Source of the DNA: Promethearchaeia archaeon
GTDB lineage: Archaea; Asgardarchaeota; Lokiarchaeia; Sigyniarchaeales; SOKP01
Length of the DNA: 64,000 bases
Direction of reading: 5' to 3'
Assembly (NCBI GenBank): GCA_029856155.1
Contig: JAHQWL010000040.1
Span: forward strand, 1 to 64,000
Below, one piece after another: positions 6,798-44,126 of this stretch (positions within the stretch are counted from its first letter, which is position 1; each line of letters begins with the position of its first letter). The position numbers and the translations under genes were made by a program. Below the pieces are notes generated by a model. That model did no database searches and was not told where the DNA came from. It saw nothing but the letters and a program-made list of their open reading frames with translations.

Positions 6798-6947
6798 TTA
6801 TGTAGGCATCTCTTTTCTCACAAAAAATTTTTTTGAAGATTTACACTTTGGACATCTAAATTCATTTTCATCTAATTCTTCGAAAGGTTTATCTTTTTCA
6901 TCATTATCGTAAATATAATTACATCTTTTACACCGGTAAAGCGAAAT
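6798..6947 (-). CDS. Rubredoxin (49 aa), apparent ATT start
   Basis: (I)SLYRCKRCNYIYDNDEKDKPFEELDENEFRCPKCKSSKKFFVRKEMPT: CxxCxYIY...F..L....CPxC; GAGGTGA SD 6 nt upstream; directly downstream of the oxidoreductase. Absent from the ORF track. Confidence 0.8.
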   Translation of the reverse strand: MSLYRCKRCNYIYDNDEKDKPFEELDENEFRCPKCKSSKKFFVRKEMPT

Positions 6948-6973
6948 TGACTTTCACCTCATTATAAATATAA

Positions 6974-8326
6974 TTAGGAATTACTTTTTTTCTTAAGTTC
7001 TTTTTTGGAGCCTTTACAATTTGGACAGGTCCAATCAGGTGGTAGATCCTTAAAGAGAATACCCATTTTAGCCTCATCATATTCCATTCCACAATTATTA
7101 CATACGTAAGCATATAATTCTAATAATTTTTTCAACTCATCTCTATCAACATCTTCTTCCATCTTGTTATACACATAAGACAATGCTTTATTTTCACCAA
7201 ATAATATGGCTCCTTTTAATTTATTTCCTTTTAGCACTAACTTCTGATAACAACAATCTTTTTTATCGGCTTTTTTTAAGATTTCCCAGGCGCCACCTTC
7301 TTCTTTCGTAGGATCTATAATTCCTATTGATGTTAGTTCTAGTCCTACAATTTTAAGAGTATTTTTAGGTGTAGTTCCTTCATAATCGACGTTTTTTAAC
7401 CCAAGCAAAGAAGCTGCGACTATTTTTGATTGTTCCATACACGCTGGAATAATACCCCATATTTGATTTTTATATTCTATACAATCTCCAACAGCATAGA
7501 TATCTTTTTCACTGGTTTCTAAAAATTCATTAACGATTATTCCTCTATTTGTTTGGATATTTGCTTCCTTAGCTAAATCTATCGTTGGACTAATACCTGC
7601 TTGAATCAAAACAATATCGCTATCAAATTTTCGTCCATCTTTTAATTTAATTCCTTCGACTCTACCATTTCCTAAAATTTCTTCGGTAACAGCATCTAAG
7701 ACTACATTAATTCCTCGACTTTCGATTTCTTCTTTTAACATAGCACCGCATTCTTCATCTAATTGTCTTGGTAATAATCGGGGAAAGAATTCTACTACAG
7801 TAGTTTCCAAATTACACGCTTTTATTTGATTAGCTAATTCTAGACCTAATAAACCCCCACCAATAATTATTGCTGTTCCAACTGAGGATTTTTTTATAAA
7901 ATCTCGTATTTCTAGAGCATCATCAATACTCCGGAGTGTAAAAACACCTTTCTTTTCTTGTTTCATTTCAGCTGCATTTTTAATAGGTGGAATACTAGGA
8001 GTACTTCCAAGTGCTAAAATGAGCTTATCATAGGCAATCAATGAATTCTCTCCTTCTATGTGTATTAATTTTGAGTTTGGGTCGATTTTATTAACTTTTT
8101 TATTTAAATGTAAGTCAATTTGCTTACTTTTATACCAATTTTCTTTAAAAACAATTAAATCATCAATAGTCACTTTCTCAGATATCAATTCTGGTAGCTT
8201 TACCCTTGTATAATAGGGGTATTTTTCTTGCGTATAGATCTCAATTTCTACTTCATCGTTGAGAGATCTTAAATTTTGGGCAGAAAATGTTCCAGAAATA
8301 TTGTTCCCGATTATAACAACTTTCAT
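6974..8326 (-). CDS. FAD-dependent NAD(P)H:rubredoxin oxidoreductase with fused C-terminal rubredoxin
   Basis: GGGLLGLE NAD-binding motif, IYAVGD FAD motif; C-terminal CNNCG...WTCPNC. Confidence 0.9.
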   Translation of the reverse strand: MKVVIIGNNISGTFSAQNLRSLNDEVEIEIYTQEKYPYYTRVKLPELISEKVTIDDLIVFKENWYKSKQIDLHLNKKVNKIDPNSKLIHIEGENSLIAYDKLILALGSTPSIPPIKNAAEMKQEKKGVFTLRSIDDALEIRDFIKKSSVGTAIIIGGGLLGLELANQIKACNLETTVVEFFPRLLPRQLDEECGAMLKEEIESRGINVVLDAVTEEILGNGRVEGIKLKDGRKFDSDIVLIQAGISPTIDLAKEANIQTNRGIIVNEFLETSEKDIYAVGDCIEYKNQIWGIIPACMEQSKIVAASLLGLKNVDYEGTTPKNTLKIVGLELTSIGIIDPTKEEGGAWEILKKADKKDCCYQKLVLKGNKLKGAILFGENKALSYVYNKMEEDVDRDELKKLLELYAYVCNNCGMEYDEAKMGILFKDLPPDWTCPNCKGSKKELKKKSNS

Positions 8327-8397
8327 AGAATAATTAGTTTTTTCATCTTATTTTAACATTATTATTATACATTTTAATCTAGAAGCCAGACCCCAAT

Positions 8398-8407
8398 GAA
8401 CATGCTC
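8398..8407. promoter_or_regulatory. Candidate operator GAACATGCTC (near-palindrome)
   Basis: In the divergent cooS/oxidoreductase intergenic region; 9/10 identical to the palindrome at 10751. Confidence 0.35.
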
Positions 8408-8483
8408 AATTTCAAACTTAAATCATAATGACTTATTTTTTAAATACAATAGTTTTAAAAAATTTGGATAAAAGTGGTTAATT

Positions 8484-10388
8484 ATGGAAAACGAAAGAAT
8501 CTCTTATCATAAATCTGTTCAAAAGGTTTATGAAAGAATTAAAAAAGATGGGATGACTAATATTTGGGATCGCTTTGAAGCCCAGGGGTTTGGAGGGGAT
8601 CCTGATAAACGATGTCCATTTTGCTTAAAAGGTGCGCGTTGTGACTTATGTTCTAATGGGCCTTGTAGAGCCGATTCATCAATAGACAAACGGGGCGTAT
8701 GCGGAATGACTGCGGACGGTATGGCAATGCGCATGATGCTTCTTAGGAATGTTATGGGCGCATCAACGTATCATTATCATACTGAAACAACTTTGAAAAC
8801 CTTAAAGGCTACGGTAGAAGGTAAAACTCCATTTAAAATTTCTGAACCCGAGAAATTAAAAAGTTTTGCTGAGCGTCTTGGTTTAGATACATCCGGTTCT
8901 GAAAAAGATATTGCAATTAGATTATATTATTTTGTGAAGGAGGACTTTATTATACCTTATGATGAACAAAGCAAAATTGTTGAGAAATTAGCACCTCCCG
9001 AAAGACAAGAAGTATGGAAAAAATTAGGAATCTTTCCAGGGGGAATTTATGGTGAAATGATGTTCTCAACAAGCTCTTGCCTTACAAATGTAGATGGATA
9101 TTATGCAAGTTTAGCTCTAAAAGCAATGAGACTTGGGATTGCCATGGCCTACCAAAGCCAAATTGTTAATGAATTTACTCAAGATATTTTATTTAATATT
9201 CCCAGACCACATAAAATGAGAGTTAATCTAGGAGTATTAGATCCAGATTACGTAAATATCCTTCCAAATGGGCATGAACCATTTCTAGGATTTGCAATGG
9301 TCCAGCTTGCACGAAAATCTGAATGGCAAGAAAAAGCGAAAGCAATCGGTGCAAAAGGAATAAGAATTATAGCAAATATTGAGACCGGACAAGAAATGAT
9401 ACAAAGATGGGAAATGGATGATGTATTTTATGGATTTACAGGAAATTGGATTATGCAAGAAGCAATCTTGGCAAGTGGCTGCATTGATGCCTTTATCTGT
9501 GATATGAATTGTTGTATGCCAATTGACCCTATATATGCTAAAAAATATAAATTCAAGTTAGTTCCGGTTTCCGAAGTTGTGGTTTTTGAAGGCATAACTG
9601 AACGAGTAGATTATAAACCTGAAAAAGCTGAAGCGCAAGCAGCAACATTAATTCAAATGGCAATTGATAATTTCAAGGAACGTAGAGCAAGTGTGGAACC
9701 TATTACAGGTTTAGATATGAGTGAAGCGGTAGTTGGATTTTCAAGTGAAAGTATTCTTTCTGCTCTTGGAGGGACATTGGAACCTTTACTAGATGTAATT
9801 AAAGACGGTACAATACGAGGAGTTGCCGGATTAATATCTTGTACTACACTTAGAGATTACGGCCAAGATGTGCATACAATTCAAGTGGCTAAAGAATTAA
9901 TTAAAAGAAATGTTTTAGTATTATCAATGGGATGTGGCAATGGTGGCCTACAAGTTGGAGGATTATGTGTACCAGAAGCGAAAGAAATGGCTGGTCCTGG
10001 CTTAAAAGCGGTTTGTGAAAAACTAGGAATTCCTCCAGTTCTTAGTTATGGAACATGTACAGATACAGGTAGAGTTGCCGATTTGATAGGAACTATCTCT
10101 GCCGCACTCGGTGGTGTACCAATTTCAGATTTACCAGTAGTAGCAGCAGCTCCAGAATATATGGAGCAGAAAGCCACAATTGATGCAATATTCGCGTTAG
10201 CATTTGGTCTATATACATATGTTAATCCAGTACCTACAGTCACTGGAGGTGCCGATTTAGTTAAACTCTTAACCGAAGATTGTAAAGATTTAACAGGTGG
10301 AATATTGCATATTGAAACTGATCCAATTCAAGCTGTCGATGCAATGTTAGCCCATATTGAGAAGAATAGGGAAAAATTAGGTATATAA
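8484..10388 (+). CDS. cooS: Anaerobic CO dehydrogenase catalytic-subunit homologue (divergent C-cluster)
   Basis: CPFC...CDLCSNGPC...CG, GHEP, DMNC, SCTT, MGCG, GTCTD and EQKA motifs of the CODH/HCP family. Confidence 0.9.
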   Translation: MENERISYHKSVQKVYERIKKDGMTNIWDRFEAQGFGGDPDKRCPFCLKGARCDLCSNGPCRADSSIDKRGVCGMTADGMAMRMMLLRNVMGASTYHYHTETTLKTLKATVEGKTPFKISEPEKLKSFAERLGLDTSGSEKDIAIRLYYFVKEDFIIPYDEQSKIVEKLAPPERQEVWKKLGIFPGGIYGEMMFSTSSCLTNVDGYYASLALKAMRLGIAMAYQSQIVNEFTQDILFNIPRPHKMRVNLGVLDPDYVNILPNGHEPFLGFAMVQLARKSEWQEKAKAIGAKGIRIIANIETGQEMIQRWEMDDVFYGFTGNWIMQEAILASGCIDAFICDMNCCMPIDPIYAKKYKFKLVPVSEVVVFEGITERVDYKPEKAEAQAATLIQMAIDNFKERRASVEPITGLDMSEAVVGFSSESILSALGGTLEPLLDVIKDGTIRGVAGLISCTTLRDYGQDVHTIQVAKELIKRNVLVLSMGCGNGGLQVGGLCVPEAKEMAGPGLKAVCEKLGIPPVLSYGTCTDTGRVADLIGTISAALGGVPISDLPVVAAAPEYMEQKATIDAIFALAFGLYTYVNPVPTVTGGADLVKLLTEDCKDLTGGILHIETDPIQAVDAMLAHIEKNREKLGI

Positions 10389-10400
10389 TTGTTAAAAATT

Positions 10401-10604
10401 TTATTTTTTCTTTTTTATTTGATAAACTCCGTCCGATAAAAGCATAAAGTGCAGTTTTCCATATTTATATACTTTATCAACTTTATTATTTTTTGCAATT
10501 TCCACGAATTCTTCCCAAGTCTTTATTTTAACAGTTCTACCGGCTTTCATAACATTCGTTACTTCAATAATTTTGAATTCTTCCGTCATTTCGACTTCCT
10601 CCAT
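10401..10604 (-). CDS. Small hypothetical protein
   Basis: 67-aa ORF with protein-like composition; GGAGG before the second Met. Confidence 0.6.
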   Translation of the reverse strand: MEEVEMTEEFKIIEVTNVMKAGRTVKIKTWEEFVEIAKNNKVDKVYKYGKLHFMLLSDGVYQIKKKK

Positions 10605-10750
10605 TTAATTTATTTATATTCATTTATTAGGTTTAAATTTTTAATTTTATAAGTTATTAGGATGTATTTATTTAAAAACTACTAGCAACTCGAAAAATAT
10701 GATGCTGGTATGTAATCATAAACTATAATATATTCATCGGGAAAAAAAAA

Positions 10751-10760
10751 GAACATGTTC
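10751..10760. promoter_or_regulatory. Perfect palindrome GAACATGTTC, candidate operator
   Basis: Upstream of the 4Fe-4S protein gene; near-copy at 8398. Confidence 0.35.
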
Positions 10761-10798
10761 GAAATTAAAATCATATTCTAATCTCCCATCTTTTAATT

Positions 10799-11584
10799 AT
10801 GACAGTTTCAGAAAAAAATAATTTGACAAAAAGAAAAATCATCAAAATCGATGAAGATCTTTGCACAGGATGCGGAAATTGTGTGGTAGATTGTGCAGAG
10901 GGAGCTTTGAAGGTAATCGATGGAAAAGCTAGGGTTATAAATGAAGTTTTCTGCGATGGTCTTGGTGCGTGCATTTCTGGTTGTCCTGAGGGAGCACTTG
11001 AAATAATTGAAAGAGAAGCTTTAGAGTTCGATGAAGAAGCTGTTGAAAAATATTTAGAATCTATGAAACATAATGAACAAGCTGAAACAGCACAAATAAA
11101 AGAAATTGTTACTGAGCACGTCCACCAATGTGGTTGCCCTTCTGCTCGAACCATGGTTTTTGAGGAACCAAAAACGCAAACAGAAGTATCTGGAAAGATA
11201 CCTTCAGCACTACGACAGTGGCCTGTTCAAATGCATTTAATCAATCCTCGAGCACCTTATTACCAAGGAGCAGATGTACTTTTTTCGGCAGATTGTGTAG
11301 GATTTTCATATGGAGATTTCCATAGAGACTTTCTAAAGCAGAAATCGATAGCAATTGCTTGTCCAAAACTCGATCAAGGTAAAGAAGTTTACATAGAAAA
11401 AATTAAATCTTTAATTGATGACGCAAAAATAAACACACTTACAGTTGCTAGTATGGAAGTGCCTTGCTGTTCTGGTTTATTAGCTTTGGCTCAAGAAGGA
11501 GTTAAACGAGCAAGTAGAAAAGTTCCAATAAAATTTGTTGTCGTGGGCATACAAGGAAATATTTTAAAAGAAGAATGGGTATAA
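10799..11584 (+). CDS. 4Fe-4S dicluster protein with Cys-rich C-terminal domain (type often found near hcp/cooS)
   Basis: CTGCGNCVVDC, CDGLGACISGCP, CGCP, LRQWPVQ, CPKLD, MEVPCC. Confidence 0.85.
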   Translation: MTVSEKNNLTKRKIIKIDEDLCTGCGNCVVDCAEGALKVIDGKARVINEVFCDGLGACISGCPEGALEIIEREALEFDEEAVEKYLESMKHNEQAETAQIKEIVTEHVHQCGCPSARTMVFEEPKTQTEVSGKIPSALRQWPVQMHLINPRAPYYQGADVLFSADCVGFSYGDFHRDFLKQKSIAIACPKLDQGKEVYIEKIKSLIDDAKINTLTVASMEVPCCSGLLALAQEGVKRASRKVPIKFVVVGIQGNILKEEWV

Positions 11585-11604
11585 TTTTTCTTTATATTTT
11601 TTAC

Positions 11605-12261
11605 TTATTGTTTCTCAAATAAGACTTTCTTTTTAATAATTTTTCTAAGCATTACGGATAAAGCTGATTTAGATTTGCCCAATTCGTTAGCTAATTCTTC
11701 TAAGGAAATCTTTCTTGGAATTTCAAAAAATCCGGAAGAAATTGCCTTATCAAGTATATTAGATTCATCATAGGTTAATTTATTTTTATCATCTTCAATA
11801 ATGTATGGAGATAATCCAATTCTTAATAATTCAAAATTAATATTTTTTTCTTCAAAAAGTGTTAATAATTGATCTATTCGTTCTCTACTCGATATCAACC
11901 TCCAATAAGCAAATCCATCCTCAACTCTTACTGGGAAGTCAATAAGGACTCCGCATTTTATTATCGCATATAATAAATAAGGATCTTCTGTTTTCACGTT
12001 AAATTTAACTTTGTTTTCTTCTTTCTCTAATACACTTAACTCGAAAACAGAAGGATGATTCCTAATTTCTACTATAATAGAATCAATATCGTAATGTAAA
12101 ATCTCAATTAGACTATTTCCAATGGACTTCTCAAGATCATAAGGCAGAAAATAGGAAATTTCCATTTTTATATCAGGAAAGTTCTTAAAAATTTCAGAAA
12201 TCCATATCTGATCTGGAAACCTAATCTTAATTCTTGCTAAACTCGACCTACTTGTATCCAT
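11605..12261 (-). CDS. HTH-10 (bacterio-opsin activator type) transcriptional regulator
   Basis: C-terminal AISSGFFEIPRKISLEELANELGKSKSALSVMLRK. Confidence 0.85.
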   Translation of the reverse strand: MDTSRSSLARIKIRFPDQIWISEIFKNFPDIKMEISYFLPYDLEKSIGNSLIEILHYDIDSIIVEIRNHPSVFELSVLEKEENKVKFNVKTEDPYLLYAIIKCGVLIDFPVRVEDGFAYWRLISSRERIDQLLTLFEEKNINFELLRIGLSPYIIEDDKNKLTYDESNILDKAISSGFFEIPRKISLEELANELGKSKSALSVMLRKIIKKKVLFEKQ

Positions 12262-36179: not shown

Positions 36180-36602
36180 TTAATTATCTAAAATCCCTGA
36201 ACTCTTAATAATGTCCAAATGATCAAAAGCTAATTTTAATGAAGAAAGATTTGATAAGGGTACAACTTCTAGGGCAGCAGCGTCGTCTAAAGCTTTTGGT
36301 TTCTCCCTTTTTGTTAATGGTTCACATAAATAAGCTATAGTAACAGTGTGTCCTCTTGGATCTCTCTTTGGATCGGAGAAAATTCCAATAAGTTTTAGAA
36401 TTTTCACTGTAATATTTGTTTCCTCTTTCACTTCACGAATACAAGCATTTTCAACAGTTTCTCCTACGTCAACAAATCCTCCAGGTAATGCAAATTGCCC
36501 CTGAAAAGGATGATTTTTGCGCCGGATTAAGACAATATCCTTTTTATTATTTAATAGGATTAAAGCATCAACCGTTAATAATGGTGTAACTGGTTTGGGC
36601 AT
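36180..36602 (-). CDS. NUDIX hydrolase (ADP-ribose pyrophosphatase-like)
   Basis: PGGFVDVGETVENACIREVKEET; RDPRGH; LAFDH. Confidence 0.92.
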   Translation of the reverse strand: MPKPVTPLLTVDALILLNNKKDIVLIRRKNHPFQGQFALPGGFVDVGETVENACIREVKEETNITVKILKLIGIFSDPKRDPRGHTVTIAYLCEPLTKREKPKALDDAAALEVVPLSNLSSLKLAFDHLDIIKSSGILDN

Positions 36603-36631
36603 ATTTATACACCTGTTTTATAGAATTCTTA

Positions 36632-37453
36632 TTATTCATCCCATACTGCTGATGCAAGTAAATGTTCGATTCTAGTTTTCCGTGGTCTAATAAACTCTGT
36701 ATGATGTTCCTTTCGTTCCAGTAATAAATTCTTCTTAAGATTGGTTGAATTAACTATATAAACTTCTAAATTACCTTCATTAAGAAATATATGATTAAAA
36801 CTAGGGGAATCATTAGCGCGGATTTTATTTGAAGTTGAAGTACCACTGTAAAGAAAAGTTGTACTTGAGGAATTCTTCCAAGAAATGGTATACGCATGAG
36901 GAACATGGCGATGGCCCATTAGTACTAGATCTATTTCAAATAAATTAGTAAACTCTAAAATTTCTCCTGCATCTCGAACTGTTGTAAATTTTTGTCCAGA
37001 CATTGGAATTGGAATTAAATGGTGATGTAATGCTATTACTCTATCTTCTAAATTCCGGTTAAATTGACGGCCTAACCAATCCAATTGCTCATCTCCAATC
37101 ATTCCTTCCGCCATATCGTCTCTAGCGGAACAAACACCTACTATCAATGCATTCTTTTCCTCTAGAATCATTCTAGACCTTCTTGGTCCAATAAGTTTCT
37201 CAAAAAATATGAGCCCTGAATTTTTTGCATCATGATTGCCTGGTACTGCAATAAACTTAGTAATATCCTTTATTCTATTTATATATTGAACTACTTTTTC
37301 AAATTGATTAACCCGTCCTTTATGTACGAGGTCCCCAGTGCAAATTACGACATCAGGATGAGTTTCTTTAATATAACTAATAATGTTTTCAAAACAATCT
37401 TCTCGGAATTCACTTCCGTAATGTAAATCGCTAATTTGTATAATTTCTACCAA
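36632..37453 (-). CDS. Icc-like metallophosphoesterase
   Basis: SDLH, TGDL, GNHD, LHHH, GHRH. Confidence 0.9.
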   Translation of the reverse strand: MVEIIQISDLHYGSEFREDCFENIISYIKETHPDVVICTGDLVHKGRVNQFEKVVQYINRIKDITKFIAVPGNHDAKNSGLIFFEKLIGPRRSRMILEEKNALIVGVCSARDDMAEGMIGDEQLDWLGRQFNRNLEDRVIALHHHLIPIPMSGQKFTTVRDAGEILEFTNLFEIDLVLMGHRHVPHAYTISWKNSSSTTFLYSGTSTSNKIRANDSPSFNHIFLNEGNLEVYIVNSTNLKKNLLLERKEHHTEFIRPRKTRIEHLLASAVWDE

Positions 37454-37616: not shown

Positions 37617-37799
37617 TTAGTTATAGCTCTCTACATTGAGAGAGTGAATTGTCATTGCGAGCTTTTGATGTAAATTACGCTGTTCTGCTAATGATATAAG
37701 AGTGTTTTCATTATCGCAATTAAAACAAACGCCATTAACAATTATATAACGTAATTCTCCACATTGTGGACATTTAAACTCCTTATATATAGCTTTCAT
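37617..37799 (-). CDS. Small Zn-finger protein
   Basis: CPQC-x10-CFNC; AGGAG upstream. Confidence 0.65.
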   Translation of the reverse strand: MKAIYKEFKCPQCGELRYIIVNGVCFNCDNENTLISLAEQRNLHQKLAMTIHSLNVESYN

Positions 37800-38154
37800 T
37801 GTTTTTTCTCCTAAATTTGTAATTTTAATATATAAATTAAATTTGATTTAATTTTGTTATTTTATCGATATCTTGTTTAATTTTTTCAATTATACCATCG
37901 ATAGATTTTTCGAGTGGTGTCTGTAAAACTTCTTTTTTTAATATGATATATTCATCCTTTTGGATTAGTAATGTTAATAGATATCGATTAAACATTTTTA
38001 ATATATAGTTTCTCTATTTTTCTTTATTATTATAGAAAAAAAATAGAGTTTTAAGCACTCTCGTTATATAATATAGAGTCTATATAGTCTATATAGAAAG
38101 AAGGAGGAATGAAAAATATTAATTCAATGAAATTTTAGAGCCTATTTTTTTCTT

Positions 38155-39957
38155 CTATTTTGGTATTCCTTCTGAATCCCAACCTCTAATATTATAATAT
38201 TTCTCTAACATGTCTTTAAGGGGTGGTATATTCCCTTTTGTTCCTCCTTTAGGGATGGGAATTGAAAATCTTGTTCCGATTGAATCATCCTTTTTTGTAA
38301 TACCACATTTTATATTGTATTTTCTTTTTAAATTAAATAGATTTTCGCCAATACTTACCCAATCTTCAATTGTATAGGACCTCCCTGTGATTGCATTAAC
38401 AGCATCCACCCATGGACTGATCTCACTAGAATAAAAAAAGCCAAACATACATCCTCCTGTTGCTGTGTATGATTCGCAAGCATCTTGTATTTTTTTGACT
38501 GCATTTATGACTTCCTCACCTCCAGAAAATGCATCAATTCTTTCAGTAAGTCCTAATTCCTTTTTAAAATGTGTAGAAAATGATAAGTGAAATGGTTCAT
38601 AACCATGGTATGCCCCACGAGAAGATGTGGCGAAATCTAATGCTGTCATATTGTTCGAACGAGGTTCATGAGCAGGTACTTCAAGACCTTTTCCTTGTAT
38701 GTTAAGATCATCTGGTAAATTATTATTTTGACAAAATATCCGAACACCATCAGCCAAATCGTTCCCAATTTCTTTTCGAAATGCAATTAACTCGATTAAA
38801 TTTTCAATTGCTGAAGTGGCACCCCAAATAGTATATTGATTCTTTTCTGGATCTTTTTCAAACCCTAGACCATTATAGTCAATTTCAATTAATTTTCGCT
38901 CTACCGCTTCTAGAAAAACTCCAAGAACTCCACCAAGAGAAATGCAATCCATCCCTAAATCATTAACCATAATGTTCCATCTAATTAAAGCTTCTAAATC
39001 ATCCATATATAAATTGGAACCCAACATTCCCAAGAATTCATATTCAGGCCATTCCACCCATTCATTATTATACTTAATTTTTCCTCTACAAGCAGTCCAA
39101 CAATTGAAACAAGAATAATGTTGTATTTCATAGTTATCTTTTAGTGAATAAAATCCAATCTTTTTTGTTCCTTTCCATCGACTTAGTGTGAAATTCTTAA
39201 TCGGTACATCTCCCGCACTAACGTAATTATCCATATGTGCAGGAGTACCTACATCATGCATAACTACAGAAAAAGGTGTTGTTTTTGCTATTGTTCTTAT
39301 TCTTTGTGCCGCCTCCATTAATTTATCTTCATTATTGATAGGTACATCTTTAGTACCACGTATAACTATTGCCTTTAAATTTTTACTTCCCATTACTGCA
39401 CCCATACCGCAACGCCCTGCAGCATGACCTTTTTCGCTCATAATTGAAGCGAATTTAACAAGATTCTCTCCTGCTGGTCCTATTGAAGCAACTTTTACTT
39501 TATCATCACCGATTTCTTTCTTTAACAAATCTTCTGTTTCTCGGGTTCCTTTTCCCCATAATTCTGTAGCATCCCGAAATTCAACATTATCATTATGAAT
39601 CCATAAATAGACAGGATTCTCACTTTTTCTGCTAAATATAATATGATCATAACCTGCTTTCTTCAATTCATTTCCAAAAAAGCCACCAGCAGAAGATTCA
39701 CCTAAAATCTTGGTTAACGGGGATTTTGCCATAACAAAATGTCTACCACAGTATGGGACAGGAGTTCCACAAATTGGACCTAAAGAGAAGATAAGGAGAT
39801 TTTGAGCATCAAAAGGATCAATAGCGGGGGGAACTTCTTTGATAAAGATTGCAGCAGCTACTCCAGCCCCTCCAATATATTTTTCTTCTAATTCAGGATC
39901 TACAATTTCTGTAGTAAAGTTCTTAGCTTCTAAATCAATTCTTAATATTTTTCCCAT
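38155..39957 (-). CDS. aor: Aldehyde:ferredoxin oxidoreductase family (W/Mo pterin)
   Basis: KSPLT, SIGPAGENLV, AAGRCGMGAVMGSKNLKA, CFNCWTAC, DLGMD. Confidence 0.9.
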   Translation of the reverse strand: MGKILRIDLEAKNFTTEIVDPELEEKYIGGAGVAAAIFIKEVPPAIDPFDAQNLLIFSLGPICGTPVPYCGRHFVMAKSPLTKILGESSAGGFFGNELKKAGYDHIIFSRKSENPVYLWIHNDNVEFRDATELWGKGTRETEDLLKKEIGDDKVKVASIGPAGENLVKFASIMSEKGHAAGRCGMGAVMGSKNLKAIVIRGTKDVPINNEDKLMEAAQRIRTIAKTTPFSVVMHDVGTPAHMDNYVSAGDVPIKNFTLSRWKGTKKIGFYSLKDNYEIQHYSCFNCWTACRGKIKYNNEWVEWPEYEFLGMLGSNLYMDDLEALIRWNIMVNDLGMDCISLGGVLGVFLEAVERKLIEIDYNGLGFEKDPEKNQYTIWGATSAIENLIELIAFRKEIGNDLADGVRIFCQNNNLPDDLNIQGKGLEVPAHEPRSNNMTALDFATSSRGAYHGYEPFHLSFSTHFKKELGLTERIDAFSGGEEVINAVKKIQDACESYTATGGCMFGFFYSSEISPWVDAVNAITGRSYTIEDWVSIGENLFNLKRKYNIKCGITKKDDSIGTRFSIPIPKGGTKGNIPPLKDMLEKYYNIRGWDSEGIPK

Positions 39958-40066
39958 AGTTAATTCATCCTCATAATTAAAACTCTAACAATAATACTAT
40001 TGGATTTAATCATATTAAATAGTTTTTAATAGTTGATAATGAAGTTATTTCATTTATTTTTAAGAT

Positions 40067-40966
40067 TTAAAAATTATTATAATTAAAATCTGAAAAAAAT
40101 GATTTAATTTGGTCTTTTTTCTTACTAGAAAGCCATTCAGAATGATGATATGAAGGTTTGAAACCAATCTTTTCTGGTTTGGATAACCATAATGGATTGT
40201 ATGGTACAAATCCTATTCTCTTTATATGTAGAGTTTTTAAATAGCGTGCTAACTTACTTAAATTTTCTGATGTATCTGTTATATCAGGAATAAGGGGGAT
40301 TCTTGGTAGAACTTCTATATTTTGTTTATTAATTAAATTTTCAAAATTTTCCAAAATGCGCTCATTGGAAACTTTACAATATTGGGCGTGAAGATTAGGA
40401 TCGAACATCTTTAAATCAAAATAAATTAAATCAACATACGGTTGTATCAGCTCATCAAATTTATTTTTATTATATAACCCACATGTCTCAATACATATAT
40501 GGATCTCTTCTTTTTTAAGTTCTTTGAGTAGATTATGAACAAAATCCATATGGTAGAGAGGTTCTCCTCCAGAAAGGGTCACTCCTCCACCAGAATTATC
40601 ATAAAATACTTTGTCTTTTAAAATAATCTTCATTAATTCTTTGATTGTATACATTTTACCTACAAATTTTAAGGCATTATTAGGACAAAAATCTATACAA
40701 CGTCCACATAGGTTACATATCCTTCGATCTATACGATATTTATAATCGAATTTAATCGCATTTTGATTACATTCTTCTAAACATTTACCACATTCTGCAC
40801 ACAATTCCTTATCAAAATATAGTTCCATAAAAGGAGATTTTGCTTCTGGATTTTGACACCAAACGCAAGAAAGGGGACAACCTTTAAAAAAGATAAGTGT
40901 TCTAATTCCCGGACCATCATCTAACGCATTTCTTTTGATGTCTACTATAAGGGTTTTCTCTGTCAT
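40067..40966 (-). CDS. Glycyl-radical enzyme activase with 2x[4Fe-4S] insert
   Basis: DGPGIRT.IFFKGCPLSCVWCQNPE; CAECGKC; CNLCGRC; GGVTLSGGEP. Confidence 0.93.
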   Translation of the reverse strand: MTEKTLIVDIKRNALDDGPGIRTLIFFKGCPLSCVWCQNPEAKSPFMELYFDKELCAECGKCLEECNQNAIKFDYKYRIDRRICNLCGRCIDFCPNNALKFVGKMYTIKELMKIILKDKVFYDNSGGGVTLSGGEPLYHMDFVHNLLKELKKEEIHICIETCGLYNKNKFDELIQPYVDLIYFDLKMFDPNLHAQYCKVSNERILENFENLINKQNIEVLPRIPLIPDITDTSENLSKLARYLKTLHIKRIGFVPYNPLWLSKPEKIGFKPSYHHSEWLSSKKKDQIKSFFSDFNYNNF

Positions 40967-41011
40967 TATTTCAAGAAATAAAAATTAAAAAATAAAAATA
41001 TTGCATATTTG

Positions 41012-43975
41012 CTATCTTGAATGATATTCATGCCTTTCAATCAGTTCTAATTGCATGTTTTTATTAAGTTTTGTGAAATAAGCATTATATCCTGAGACTC
41101 TAACCAAGAGCCATCTATAATCAATCGGATTAGCCATCGCATCTCTCATAGTTTCCGAAGATACAACGTTAAATTGCCATTGCATCCCATTTAGATCAAA
41201 AAAGCTCTGGACATAGCTCGTGAAAAGATCTAGAGTTTGTTTATGGTCATCAGCTGGATGCGGAACAAGTTTCACATTATAAGAAGCATTATTTGCCATT
41301 TTTAAGAAGTCTAAAGCTGCAACACTTTGAATGCTCGGAAGTAAGATATCAGTGGTACCAGGTGCGGGAGTTAATCCTGGAGTTAACGCCTTTCCTTTCT
41401 TTCTACCCGATGGTAAAGCTCCAGTCAGCATTCCAAATCCCGTATGATAACTTATCGACCAGTAGCCTACCAGATATTTACCACCTCTATAATTTTCGAC
41501 AGAATTGTAAATATCATAACAAAAATCAATTATATCCTGAGCCATTTCAATGGTTCCATCCTCACCTGAACCAAATTTTGGAACTTGTTCTATTTTATGC
41601 AAAACGGACTCGTAACCTTCGAAGTTATTATCAATAGCATCCTTTAATGTAGCAAAATTAAATTCGTTTTTATTGTAGACTAAATCCTTAATGACTAGTA
41701 AACTATCAATTACATCCGTAAGTGCAACAAGTGCAACTCCCGAAGTATTATATACGGCGCCACCATTAATAAGATCCTTAGCTTTTTCTAAAGGACCTTC
41801 GTAAAAACTCGATAAAAGTGGTGTTGGATGTATATATCTATGTGATTCCCCCAAATAATTATTAATTTCAATTGATTGCTCTGCTAAATATTTGAGTTGA
41901 GTTTTATAAGCATTTAGGAAATCTTCAAATGTTATAAAATTGATACGAACATCGCCAGTTTCAATTCCCATTTTTTCTCCCGTTAATGGAATAATTCCGT
42001 TGTTCAATGCCATTTCTAAGGGAGCCACCAAGTTTAAAAGCATACAATTCGTATGACCATAATGTTTTCCTACAATGCTTGGCTCAACACATCCAGTTGC
42101 AGCCCAATCTCTAGCATCTTCTATAGTAAAACCTTCGTGAACCAATGCTTCAATCATAGTTCTATCATTATGAATGCTTGGAGATGCCCCCATGTTTACA
42201 TTTACTTCAGTTAAACGCCGTAAATATTCCTTTGAATTAATTCCAGAATAATATCTAGCATTCATATTAGGATCTTGGAAACCAAGCATCTCATTTGTCT
42301 TTAAAATAATAAAGCTCATATCATTCACAGCGTTATTTCCTTCTCTATCAACACCACCAACTGTCACAGTATCATCTGAAGAACTACCTCCGAAAAGTTT
42401 CCAACCCACATTTGGCATTAGTGGATCGTGGTCGTTAATTCTAATAAACAAGGATCCGACTAACTCAATTGCCTTACTTATGATTTGTTCTTTTTCATTG
42501 TCATTTTTAGCTTTCTCAATCTCTTTTAAAAAGAATGGTTGGAGCATTTGATCTAATCTACCAATTGATAAAGCAGAATTAGCATTTTCACAATGTAAAC
42601 AAACAAAACTCGTCCAAATTGACTGTATTGCTTCTTGAAGCGTTTCTGCTGGTTTTCCTGGTACTTTCGCACATATTCTAGAAATTTCCTTTAATTCTTC
42701 AATTCTTTTTGCTTGTTGTGGTTCATTTGGATCCAAAGATTCAGCAATTCTTATTGCTTCTTCACTCAGATTTTTAGAATATGTTAAAACACCATCTATC
42801 GCTATTTGAATTGCCTTATAGAAATTTTTTTTCTCTTTTGAATCCACTTCTTTTTCTAATTTTTCAGCTTTATGTTTTACACTTTCTAATCCTTCGTTTA
42901 TAACCATTGGAAAACCCGGGACTGTATGGCTGATGGCATTGGTTTTCATCATAAAATAAAATACCCAGCCTTCTTCTAAAGCTTGAGATTTGGGATTATC
43001 GAATTTTTTACGGCAGTATTCTCTCACGTTCCGTTCCATCCAATAAGGAAAAACCTCTAGACTTAAAATTTCTGCATCTTTATCGGAAATATCGTTAGGA
43101 TTTAGCTCGCGTTCACCAATCGTTTTCAGTTCAGGCCAAATAGCTGTCGCAATAAGTTCAGGATACATCGGGATCCCAACTTCTTTTGATGTAGTAGAAC
43201 CAGCAATCAGATGTCTATCATGAATTATAGGTTTTTTATTAGACATTATGTAATTTACTGCTCCTGCTTGTCGTAATTCTGGATCTAGTGGATTTCCAGA
43301 ACTATCTTCCTCGAACCCATTTTCCCTATGATATTGTGTTACTAATTTAGCCCTTTCAACACATATTGCTGGTTTTAAGGCAAAACGCCGGTTTTTTAAA
43401 TATTTTAAACGTGGAAAATCCTCCAAAGAGTATTTTGCTAGATAAGGATCTTCTAATACCTCAACTTTATCAACCTTTCGATTCAAACTTTCATTCTTAA
43501 GCCTTCTACTCTTTTCTCCACTATCAATATTCTCAATTGGATATATTATTCGGTTTTCAGGACCTTTATAATCCTTGATCTTAGCTCCCATAACGAGCGA
43601 TGTGAGATAAGAAAACTTCGTAAGGTAAGACATGTTTCCAATATATCCCATCTCGTTTGTTAAAAGATAATTAAGCGATTCTTCAGCACTCTTGCTATAG
43701 AGATTTGCCAAAGTCTCTTTATCCTTATAATATATAGTGATATTAGGATCATCAATTTTTCCATCTGCCACAGTCATCTTTCCATCTTTAAAAATCACGT
43801 GAACATTAAATGCATCATCTTTAGTTGTAAATTGATACTTGGCATTAAAGATGAAGCCGGTTTTTTCATTATATATCTCTCTACGCATTTTTCTGCGAGT
43901 ATCAAATATCATTGCCAGTAAATTTAACTGATCTTTGAAATTTTCAAGCTCTTTATCAATTTCTAATTCATTCAT
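41012..43975 (-). CDS. Glycyl-radical enzyme (dehydratase/eliminase-like) with N-terminal SCP2-like domain
   Basis: TGCVEP thiyl loop; RVSGY glycyl loop; N-terminal ~140 aa with SCP2-like pattern. Confidence 0.88.
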   Translation of the reverse strand: MNELEIDKELENFKDQLNLLAMIFDTRRKMRREIYNEKTGFIFNAKYQFTTKDDAFNVHVIFKDGKMTVADGKIDDPNITIYYKDKETLANLYSKSAEESLNYLLTNEMGYIGNMSYLTKFSYLTSLVMGAKIKDYKGPENRIIYPIENIDSGEKSRRLKNESLNRKVDKVEVLEDPYLAKYSLEDFPRLKYLKNRRFALKPAICVERAKLVTQYHRENGFEEDSSGNPLDPELRQAGAVNYIMSNKKPIIHDRHLIAGSTTSKEVGIPMYPELIATAIWPELKTIGERELNPNDISDKDAEILSLEVFPYWMERNVREYCRKKFDNPKSQALEEGWVFYFMMKTNAISHTVPGFPMVINEGLESVKHKAEKLEKEVDSKEKKNFYKAIQIAIDGVLTYSKNLSEEAIRIAESLDPNEPQQAKRIEELKEISRICAKVPGKPAETLQEAIQSIWTSFVCLHCENANSALSIGRLDQMLQPFFLKEIEKAKNDNEKEQIISKAIELVGSLFIRINDHDPLMPNVGWKLFGGSSSDDTVTVGGVDREGNNAVNDMSFIILKTNEMLGFQDPNMNARYYSGINSKEYLRRLTEVNVNMGASPSIHNDRTMIEALVHEGFTIEDARDWAATGCVEPSIVGKHYGHTNCMLLNLVAPLEMALNNGIIPLTGEKMGIETGDVRINFITFEDFLNAYKTQLKYLAEQSIEINNYLGESHRYIHPTPLLSSFYEGPLEKAKDLINGGAVYNTSGVALVALTDVIDSLLVIKDLVYNKNEFNFATLKDAIDNNFEGYESVLHKIEQVPKFGSGEDGTIEMAQDIIDFCYDIYNSVENYRGGKYLVGYWSISYHTGFGMLTGALPSGRKKGKALTPGLTPAPGTTDILLPSIQSVAALDFLKMANNASYNVKLVPHPADDHKQTLDLFTSYVQSFFDLNGMQWQFNVVSSETMRDAMANPIDYRWLLVRVSGYNAYFTKLNKNMQLELIERHEYHSR

Positions 43976-44126
43976 CTCATTTCTCTCAAATCTGTAGATT
44001 TATAGATCTTATTTTAAGATTAAACTTCTGATATTATAATGTATTTTATTCATTAATTATTTATATCTTTAGTATTAAACTAAAGAGTAGAGTTTACTAA
44101 TTTTAATTCTTTAATAAAAAAGTCTT

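Follow-up and report, generated by a model that had tools for sequence, protein, structure and literature searches.

What does a glycyl radical enzyme (GRE) do with a lipid-carrier fold at its N-terminus, and why does an aldehyde oxidoreductase travel with it? The question is raised by a locus in positions 1 to 64,000 of contig JAHQWL010000040.1 (assembly GCA_029856155.1), the 64,000-nucleotide stretch that we analysed and call the window, from Promethearchaeia archaeon, a Loki-type Asgard archaeon with a G+C content of about 29%. Genes for an oxygen-sensitive GRE, its activating enzyme and an aldehyde:ferredoxin oxidoreductase (AOR) lie there head to tail on the minus strand; the window's list of open reading frames (ORFs) and the Pfam domains agree on all three, as had been proposed in an earlier interpretation made from the letters alone (the sequence-only reading). 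The answer that we favour, at a probability of roughly 0.55, is that the three form one unit, in which the GRE would be a radical C-O lyase or dehydratase acting on the head of an amphiphile, with an SCP2 module taking care of the tail and the AOR then oxidising the resulting aldehyde. The observations behind it are the gene order, the SCP2 fold, the catalytic residues, an invariant special pocket and co-inheritance with a single AOR clade.

41012..43975, minus strand: GRE (P0001), 987 amino acids (aa), consisting of an SCP2 module, a linker, a PFL-like barrel (residues 190-848; PF02901, E=1.5e-161) and a glycyl radical domain (Gly_radical, residues 865-968; PF01228, E=1.1e-21).
40067..40966, minus strand: GRE activating enzyme, 299 aa, a radical SAM protein with an extra ferredoxin-like two-cluster insert (TIGR02494, 298.8 bits, cut-off 174).
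38155..39957, minus strand: aldehyde:ferredoxin oxidoreductase (AOR subfamily), 600 aa, with CxxCxxxC and a fourth Cys for a 4Fe-4S cluster (9mqx, 398 bits; 1aor, 385 bits).

The N-terminal region of the GRE divides into two parts.

43586..43975, minus strand: SCP2-fold module, GRE residues 1-130, in the order helix-helix-four strands-helix-helix-strand-helix (Pfam at the family level, PDB profile search, Foldseek, VIA).
43415..43585, minus strand: linker, GRE residues 131-187 (AlphaFold2 (AF2) model, alignment).

The sequence-only reading had recognised SCP2 here, and every string that it quoted from the GRE is found in the translation: FNAKYQFTTKD, VIFKDGKMTVADGKIDDPNITI, LLTNEMGYIGNMSYLTKF, GCVE (628-631), ENANSALS (463-470), FGGSSSDD (528-535) and YWSISYH (838-844). 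For the window protein by itself the assignment is weak, residues 1-195 matching Pfam SCP2 (PF02036) at E=0.016 and 16 bits, under the 21.3-bit gathering cut-off, but at the level of family and fold it is solid. Among 34 homologous N-domains, 27 match SCP2 individually in Pfam (best E=1.5e-6) and six match the SCP2-like Alkyl_sulf_C, and a profile of the N-domain gave three matches in the PDB, all of them SCP2 proteins. Foldseek with the N-domain model placed the SCP2 protein AF1534, UbiJ-SCP2, the SCP2-like domains of alkylsulfatases and that of MFE-2 at the top (E down to 7e-6), while VIA-align against 48,161 chains scored nine SCP2-family chains at Z 9.5-11.8 and a tenth at 7.2, the best non-SCP2 chain reaching 6.0. 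Because these four approaches agree, we judge residues 1-130 to be a real SCP2 fold. Model confidence (pLDDT) is 85-94 for residues 1-90, 64 for residues 91-110 and 75-84 for residues 111-130. Within the linker, confidence is low at residues 131-146 and, in the full-length AF2 model, high at residues 160-190, a segment that is also conserved (D169, V171, L174, D176, P177, F187, P188).

The pairing of this module with a GRE is widespread. The N-terminal domain is shared by no fewer than 130 GREs with lengths near 985 aa, in Asgard lineages and, at identities falling to about 50%, in Desulfatibacillum, Desulfomonilia and Thermodesulfobacteriota; homologues also occur on Bacteriovoracaceae and Polyangiaceae contigs. 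In a search over 1.84 billion representatives, N-fused forms could be traced to 31-34% identity, and relatives of 1020-1070 aa came up that bear an extra segment at the C-terminus instead, which is the same SCP2 module (hhalign probability 93-98%); profile-profile comparison was required to see it, as Pfam did not reveal SCP2 in full-length distant relatives. In a sister clade the module is a stand-alone ORF of about 160 aa, which in 56 of 80 loci separates the GRE gene from the activase gene; this ORF matches SCP2 at E=0.003 and is also recovered by tblastn with the window's N-domain. The pairing is thus kept in three gene arrangements and is therefore functional, selected rather than accidental. 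In the literature we found no description of an SCP2-linked GRE or of this family, whose members are currently labelled formate acetyltransferase in databases and alkylsuccinate synthase in one paper. The sister-clade operons of GRE, stand-alone SCP2 and activase (L081-L160) are often flanked by DUF6765 (25 loci), by a protein of about 620-800 aa that carries no annotation (20 loci) and by calcineurin-like phosphoesterases.

What chemistry the barrel might perform can be read from four sites.

42926..42928, minus strand: His350, which pairs with His164 of B12-independent glycerol dehydratase (GDH) and is invariant in 137 relatives (alignment).
42368..42394, minus strand: pocket loop FGGSSSDDT, residues 528-536, in which Asp534 replaces GDH Tyr339 (alignment).
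42080..42094, minus strand: Cys loop G628-C629-V630-E631-P632, with the thiyl radical Cys and the catalytic Glu (alignment).
41087..41101, minus strand: glycyl radical motif R959-V-S-G962-Y963 (Pfam, alignment).

With its PFL-like barrel, a C-terminal RVSGY (959-963) and a radical SAM activase next door, the protein belongs to the GRE superfamily. In an alignment with solved GREs, C629, E631, H350 and G962 are equivalent to C433, E435, H164 and G763 of GDH, and H350, C629, E631, W839, H844 and G962 are invariant across the 137 relatives, so that the eliminase-class residues, C629-V-E631 and the general acid His350 (GDH His164, HypD His160), are all present. The GCVE loop had led the sequence-only reading to the dehydratase/eliminase class. 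The C-x-E motif is indeed there, but by itself it is not diagnostic of eliminases, HPAD, a decarboxylase, having such a loop as well; it is the conservation of His350 that makes a dehydratase-type reading stronger.

The same alignment bears out the earlier remark that the pocket loops are unlike those of characterised GREs. The positions that we take to be substrate-binding in GDH (H281, S282, Y339, D447 and Y640 in GDH numbering) are replaced in the window GRE by S467, A468, D534, N643 and W839. Throughout the AOR-linked main clade (53 of 53 sequences, from both domains of life) S467, A468, D534, D535, H638, H641, T642 and N643 are invariant, as are F528, S533, D534, D535 and T536 within loop 528-536, where S531 (49/53) and S532 (52/53) give way only to Thr. 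The sister-clade pocket is more hydrophobic, with Met or Val at position 467 and Val or Asn at position 534. Judged by alignment, then, the GRE combines dehydratase-type machinery with a polar pocket of its own. None of the NCBIfam equivalog models scored reaches its cut-off with this protein (bits/cut-off: HypD 435/1100, CutC 421/1050, sulfopropanediol dehydratase 380/1000, indoleacetate decarboxylase 287/1100, HPA decarboxylase 211/1150), and the subfamily model for B12-independent glycerol/propanediol dehydratases, TIGR01774, gives 533 bits against a cut-off of 678, with the substrate residues not matched.

The third gene encodes a genuine AOR, with AFOR_N and AFOR_C domains (E=1e-81 and 1e-84), Cys ligands in CFNCWTAC and GGCMFG, and true AORs as its nearest solved relatives; tungsten is the metal predicted from its family. 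The sequence-only reading had suggested looking for co-occurrence with the GRE, and an AOR lies within 8 kb of the GRE at 28 of 63 main-clade loci versus one of 80 sister-clade loci (Fisher p=3e-11). The window genome (4.1 Mb) holds 16 AOR and 7 GRE paralogues, and with 16 AOR genes chance adjacency is expected at about 7%. A phylogeny of AORs places the link beyond chance: 19 GRE-linked Asgard AORs, the window's included, group in a single clade (SH-aLRT 100), and none of the 13 other AOR paralogues of the window genome taken into the tree falls inside it (two of the 16 failed the ORF filter); the sister of this clade (SH-aLRT 96) consists of three AORs beside Desulfobacterales homologues. 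A dedicated AOR clade thus accompanies the GRE in archaea as well as in bacteria. Other AORs near the GRE form a second, looser group that sits in another AOR clade. One further GRE is encoded on the window's contig beyond the window end (C44:73326-74831).

Gene order in other Asgard genomes points the same way. In most of their loci the GRE is found between Ldh2-Ldh2-CDF-FNR-CrtI-like genes and SnoaL-DUF1848-FAD_binding_4. In the window genome the usual neighbours sit on other contigs (C103, C26) without a GRE, with Ldh2, CDF, SnoaL and DUF1848 together on one contig, and GRE-activase-AOR stands beside the gene for alanyl-tRNA synthetase (AlaRS); because of this separation we conclude that GRE, activase and AOR moved as a block. 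Nothing else argues as strongly as co-inheritance and block movement for the AOR taking the GRE product, in other words an aldehyde, as its substrate. By the same separation, the two Ldh2 proteins, the CDF transporter, the CrtI-like flavoprotein with its FNR-type reductase, SnoaL, DUF1848 and FAD_binding_4 were rejected as obligate partners and reflect ancestral synteny only. The activase, with Radical_SAM and ferredoxin-type cluster domains in Pfam, adjoins the GRE in 51 homologous loci.

Bacterial operons add further partners. The Desulfobacterales core order is activase, crotonase, GRE and AOR (L031, L035, L055), and a 602-aa acyl-CoA dehydrogenase is additionally present at L039, L044 and L056. 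L056 (1228-13671) is a tight operon, in the order GRE2, long-chain-type acyl-CoA ligase, crotonase, AOR, acyl-CoA dehydrogenase and SCP2-GRE, with gaps of 10-55 bp among the first five genes; the start of its SCP2-GRE is less sure, the longest ORF overlapping the dehydrogenase gene and the tblastn match beginning about 80 bp past it. GRE2 is an eliminase-type protein of 831 aa, nearest to HypD and GDH, and L044 likewise has a second GRE nearby. Hydroxyacyl-CoA dehydrogenase and thiolase are missing from the annotated neighbour families, but several unclustered ORFs of these loci were not scanned and their absence is not established.

The crotonases themselves are unusual. Of 15 GRE-linked crotonases, eleven, drawn from both domains, have neither of the glutamates that are catalytic in enoyl-CoA hydratase; in the variants at L024, L025, L027, L035, L037, L039, L044, L055 and L056 these are replaced by Ser/Ala/Gly and Tyr/Ile/Phe, and a GAD-x-(G/A)-SS motif, somewhat MenB/BadI-like, is conserved. 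We read this as pointing to a special reaction rather than an ordinary beta-oxidation step. In the window genome itself, L161 (G000:C24:38000-54079, 6849-12032) carries an 801-aa GRE paralogue, 29% identical and with GCVEP and the His, divergent from three tandem crotonase genes, whose products are 57-72% identical to those beside the SCP2-GRE at the Asgard loci L024 and L025; one crotonase type therefore partners two GRE families. Two candidates for further SCP2 proteins were discarded: the 172-aa ORF beside this C24 paralogue is not SCP2-like, and neither is c38, a conserved 209-aa bacterial neighbour with no Pfam match.

Taken together, these observations allow a rough proposal for the unit, of which the substrate, the type of leaving group, the aldehyde product and lipid binding by SCP2 are the parts that we infer. 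The activase would install a radical on Gly962, which would hand it to Cys629. The thiyl radical could then attack an amphiphile at its polar head, abstracting hydrogen from a hydroxyl-bearing carbon, while the SCP2 module holds or delivers the hydrophobic tail of this substrate. Glu631 would deprotonate the hydroxyl and His350 protonate the leaving group, a hydroxyl or alkoxy, on the adjacent carbon, so that a 1,2-elimination like that of glycerol or propanediol dehydratase would yield an aldehyde. The dedicated AOR would convert this to the acid with reduction of ferredoxin, and in the bacterial versions the acid may go on to a CoA ester, to be processed by the unusual crotonase and the acyl-CoA dehydrogenase.

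Several points weigh against this proposal. Many of the loci are interrelated, and the locus counts overstate independent events; in a second N-fused clade with the same fusion (46-48% identity) an AOR is near the GRE in none of 17 loci; and the AOR tree comes from a quick maximum-likelihood search, not a finished version. The AF2 model of the full-length GRE has a pLDDT of 76, with the Cys and Gly loops below 50. Binding or holding of lipid by the SCP2 module is predicted from its fold, and the module could be a mere structural small subunit. Finally, the variable pocket positions (Asp534, Asp535, His638, His641, Asn643) carry polar or acidic side chains instead of greasy ones. Because they are so strikingly polar, the part of the substrate on which the GRE works is most likely a polar head group and not a hydrocarbon chain.

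These same residues, with Ser467, would also suit a dehydratase or lyase of a small soluble polar substrate (polyols, amino alcohols and phosphorylated sugar-like compounds are examples), with the SCP2-fold module serving only as a structural or regulatory small subunit as in other GREs. The small-subunit gene of HPAD is located between the GRE and activase genes, just where the sister clade has its stand-alone module, and the housekeeping neighbours of the window locus include no lipid genes. To our knowledge, however, the SCP2 fold has been reported almost exclusively as a binder or presenter of hydrophobic ligands (SCP2, UbiJ, alkylsulfatase domains), and the bacterial operons contain a long-chain-type acyl-CoA ligase and the 602-aa acyl-CoA dehydrogenase. 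We regard a small soluble substrate as rather unlikely, if worth keeping in mind.

Within the amphiphile proposal, a more specific and decidedly tentative version is that the unit starts the anaerobic breakdown of ether lipids, either alkylglycerols or archaeol-type lipids once the head group has been removed. SCP2 would hold the alkyl chain while the GRE either dehydrates the glycerol head or eliminates the alkoxy group, giving 3-alkoxypropanal, from which the AOR would make 3-alkoxypropionate. In bacteria, the acyl-CoA ligase and the glutamate-less crotonase could bring about a beta-elimination that splits the fatty alcohol off the CoA ester; the acryloyl-CoA could be handled by the homologue of acyl-CoA dehydrogenase. 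A route through 3-alkoxypropanal would employ every conserved partner. We know of no anaerobic enzyme that cleaves ether lipids.

A substrate with nitrogen in its head may also be considered. Here the GRE would be a deaminating lyase of a long-chain amino alcohol, for example a sphingoid base, with Asp534 and Asp535, both invariant in the AOR-linked clade, binding the ammonium group, and with ammonia eliminated to give a hydroxy-aldehyde for the AOR. In choline TMA-lyase an aspartate holds the ammonium group, and the homologues on Bacteriovoracaceae and Polyangiaceae contigs would agree with such a substrate. The whole basis of this idea is two residues, though, His350 is retained as in the dehydratases that eliminate hydroxyl, and no sphingolipid genes were seen nearby, which together make it an improbable choice.

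Hydrocarbon activation by fumarate addition, with SCP2 carrying the alkane, is more improbable by far. Besides an SCP2 fold that could hold an alkane and the presence of the family in the alkane degrader Desulfatibacillum, it draws on a study of Hermodarchaeota that assigned related Asgard GREs to Ass/Bss from 29-33% identity to AssA/BssA and a single Cys (PMC8163825). Yet the window GRE scores 203 bits with MasD and 176 with TutD, against 382 with PFL2 and 353-363 with HypD, propanediol dehydratase and glycerol dehydratase, and it has GCVEP with the catalytic Glu where a methylalkylsuccinate synthase fragment in the supplement of that study reads QACMSP (PMC8163825). There are no ORFs for small beta or gamma subunits between the genes of the locus, the activase prefers dehydratase-type activase models over BssD (310 versus 204 bits), and fumarate addition has no use for an aldehyde oxidoreductase. 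For the SCP2-GRE family the Ass/Bss label is thus not supported. At least one of the five Hermodarchaeota proteins so labelled aligns to PflD with a 137-residue N-terminal offset (PMC8163825) and may, on that ground, belong to the SCP2-fused family. The names given to homologues in databases point to a true pyruvate formate-lyase, but this reading is refuted at the sequence level by a single Cys in place of the Cys-Cys pair, by 129 bits with TIGR01255 (cut-off 994) and by 100 bits with E. coli PFL, and can be dismissed. On both of these exclusions the sequence-only reading was right.

The layout of the locus fits a single three-gene unit. The GRE stop codon is 45 bp from the activase start and the activase stop 109 bp from the AOR start, and three short elements frame the genes.

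43998..44003, minus strand: possible archaeal promoter, a TATA-like hexamer (tataaa) located 23-28 nt ahead of the start codon of the GRE (sequence only).
44116..44121, minus strand: run of six T directly past the AlaRS stop codon, a possible terminator between AlaRS and the GRE unit (sequence only).
38036..38043, minus strand: run of eight T about 110 nt past the AOR stop codon, a possible transcript end of GRE-activase-AOR (sequence only).

The hexamer and the T runs would be compatible with one three-gene transcript. Upstream of the GRE lies the archaeal-type AlaRS gene, and the remaining neighbours in the window are housekeeping genes (PheA, prephenate dehydrogenase, D-aminoacyl-tRNA deacylase, FtsZ); among the annotated neighbours at the window's own locus there are no lipid genes. 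Downstream of the AOR, metallophosphoesterase and Nudix genes (window 36180-37453, minus strand) follow in six of six orthologous loci of the same arrangement (L002-L004, L033, L054 and the window). Between the AOR and metallophosphoesterase genes, a gap of 700 bp contains a 60-aa ORF with two CxxC pairs, zinc-ribbon-like (window 37617-37799, minus strand), and a similar gap of about 650-750 bp is kept at orthologous loci. The metallophosphoesterase has weak LpxG/CpdA-type similarity, and a role as a lipid phosphodiesterase might fit. Phosphoesterases and hydrolases near the GRE (Metallophos at window-type loci; Zn phospholipase C, an alpha/beta hydrolase and HAD phosphatases elsewhere) would suit the removal of lipid head groups, but each occurs in only one to six related loci and was given little weight.

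GREs are the main means by which anaerobes carry out chemically hard reactions, and newly assigned families have opened pathways for choline, hydroxyproline and sulfonates. The family described here is large, with members in Asgard archaea of sediments, in sulfate reducers and in syntrophs. Its three SCP2 arrangements, together with one co-inherited AOR clade, lead to a testable hypothesis, namely that an amphiphile is attacked anaerobically at its head group. Were the substrate an ether lipid, this would fill a gap concerning the O2-free degradation of ether lipids, archaeal membrane lipids included, in sediments. In any case, caution is needed in deducing hydrocarbon degradation in Asgard genomes from SCP2-GRE genes.

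Among known systems, the best-scoring solved relative is Archaeoglobus fulgidus PFL2/PflD (2f3o), at 382 bits over residues 201-981, which shares the single Cys, GCVE and a His at the position of His350. It has no SCP2 module and a different pocket, with Q/A at S467/A468, Asp at N643 and GQATNQ at SSSDD, and its own function is likewise unproven. Glycerol dehydratase (1r8w) and 1,2-propanediol dehydratase (5i2a) share the catalytic set (Cys433, Glu435, His164, Gly763) and the ferredoxin-insert type of activase, and both form aldehydes. The window GRE differs from them in its substrate residues, in its extra 187-aa N-terminal region and in its partner, a predicted tungsten-type AOR in place of the usual NAD-dependent aldehyde or alcohol dehydrogenases. 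HypD (trans-4-hydroxy-L-proline dehydratase, 6vxc) and CutC (choline TMA-lyase) have the fold and the C-x-E loop in common with the window GRE, and the HypD activase model is the best named model for the window activase, but the GRE falls far under the equivalog cut-offs of both. For the N-terminal module, the closest parallels are the C-terminal domain of the alkylsulfatases SdsA1/PisA1 and UbiJ-SCP2, which have the same fold (Foldseek E 1e-5 to 1e-4, VIA Z 10-11) and, like it, present a lipid-carrier fold attached to a soluble enzyme; their identity to the GRE module is 10-16%, and a GRE as the partner is a pairing for which we found no paper. Alkylglycerol monooxygenase (AGMO) would do the same job, the opening of alkylglycerols, only if the ether-lipid idea is right; AGMO requires O2 and tetrahydrobiopterin and is unrelated to the GRE in sequence.

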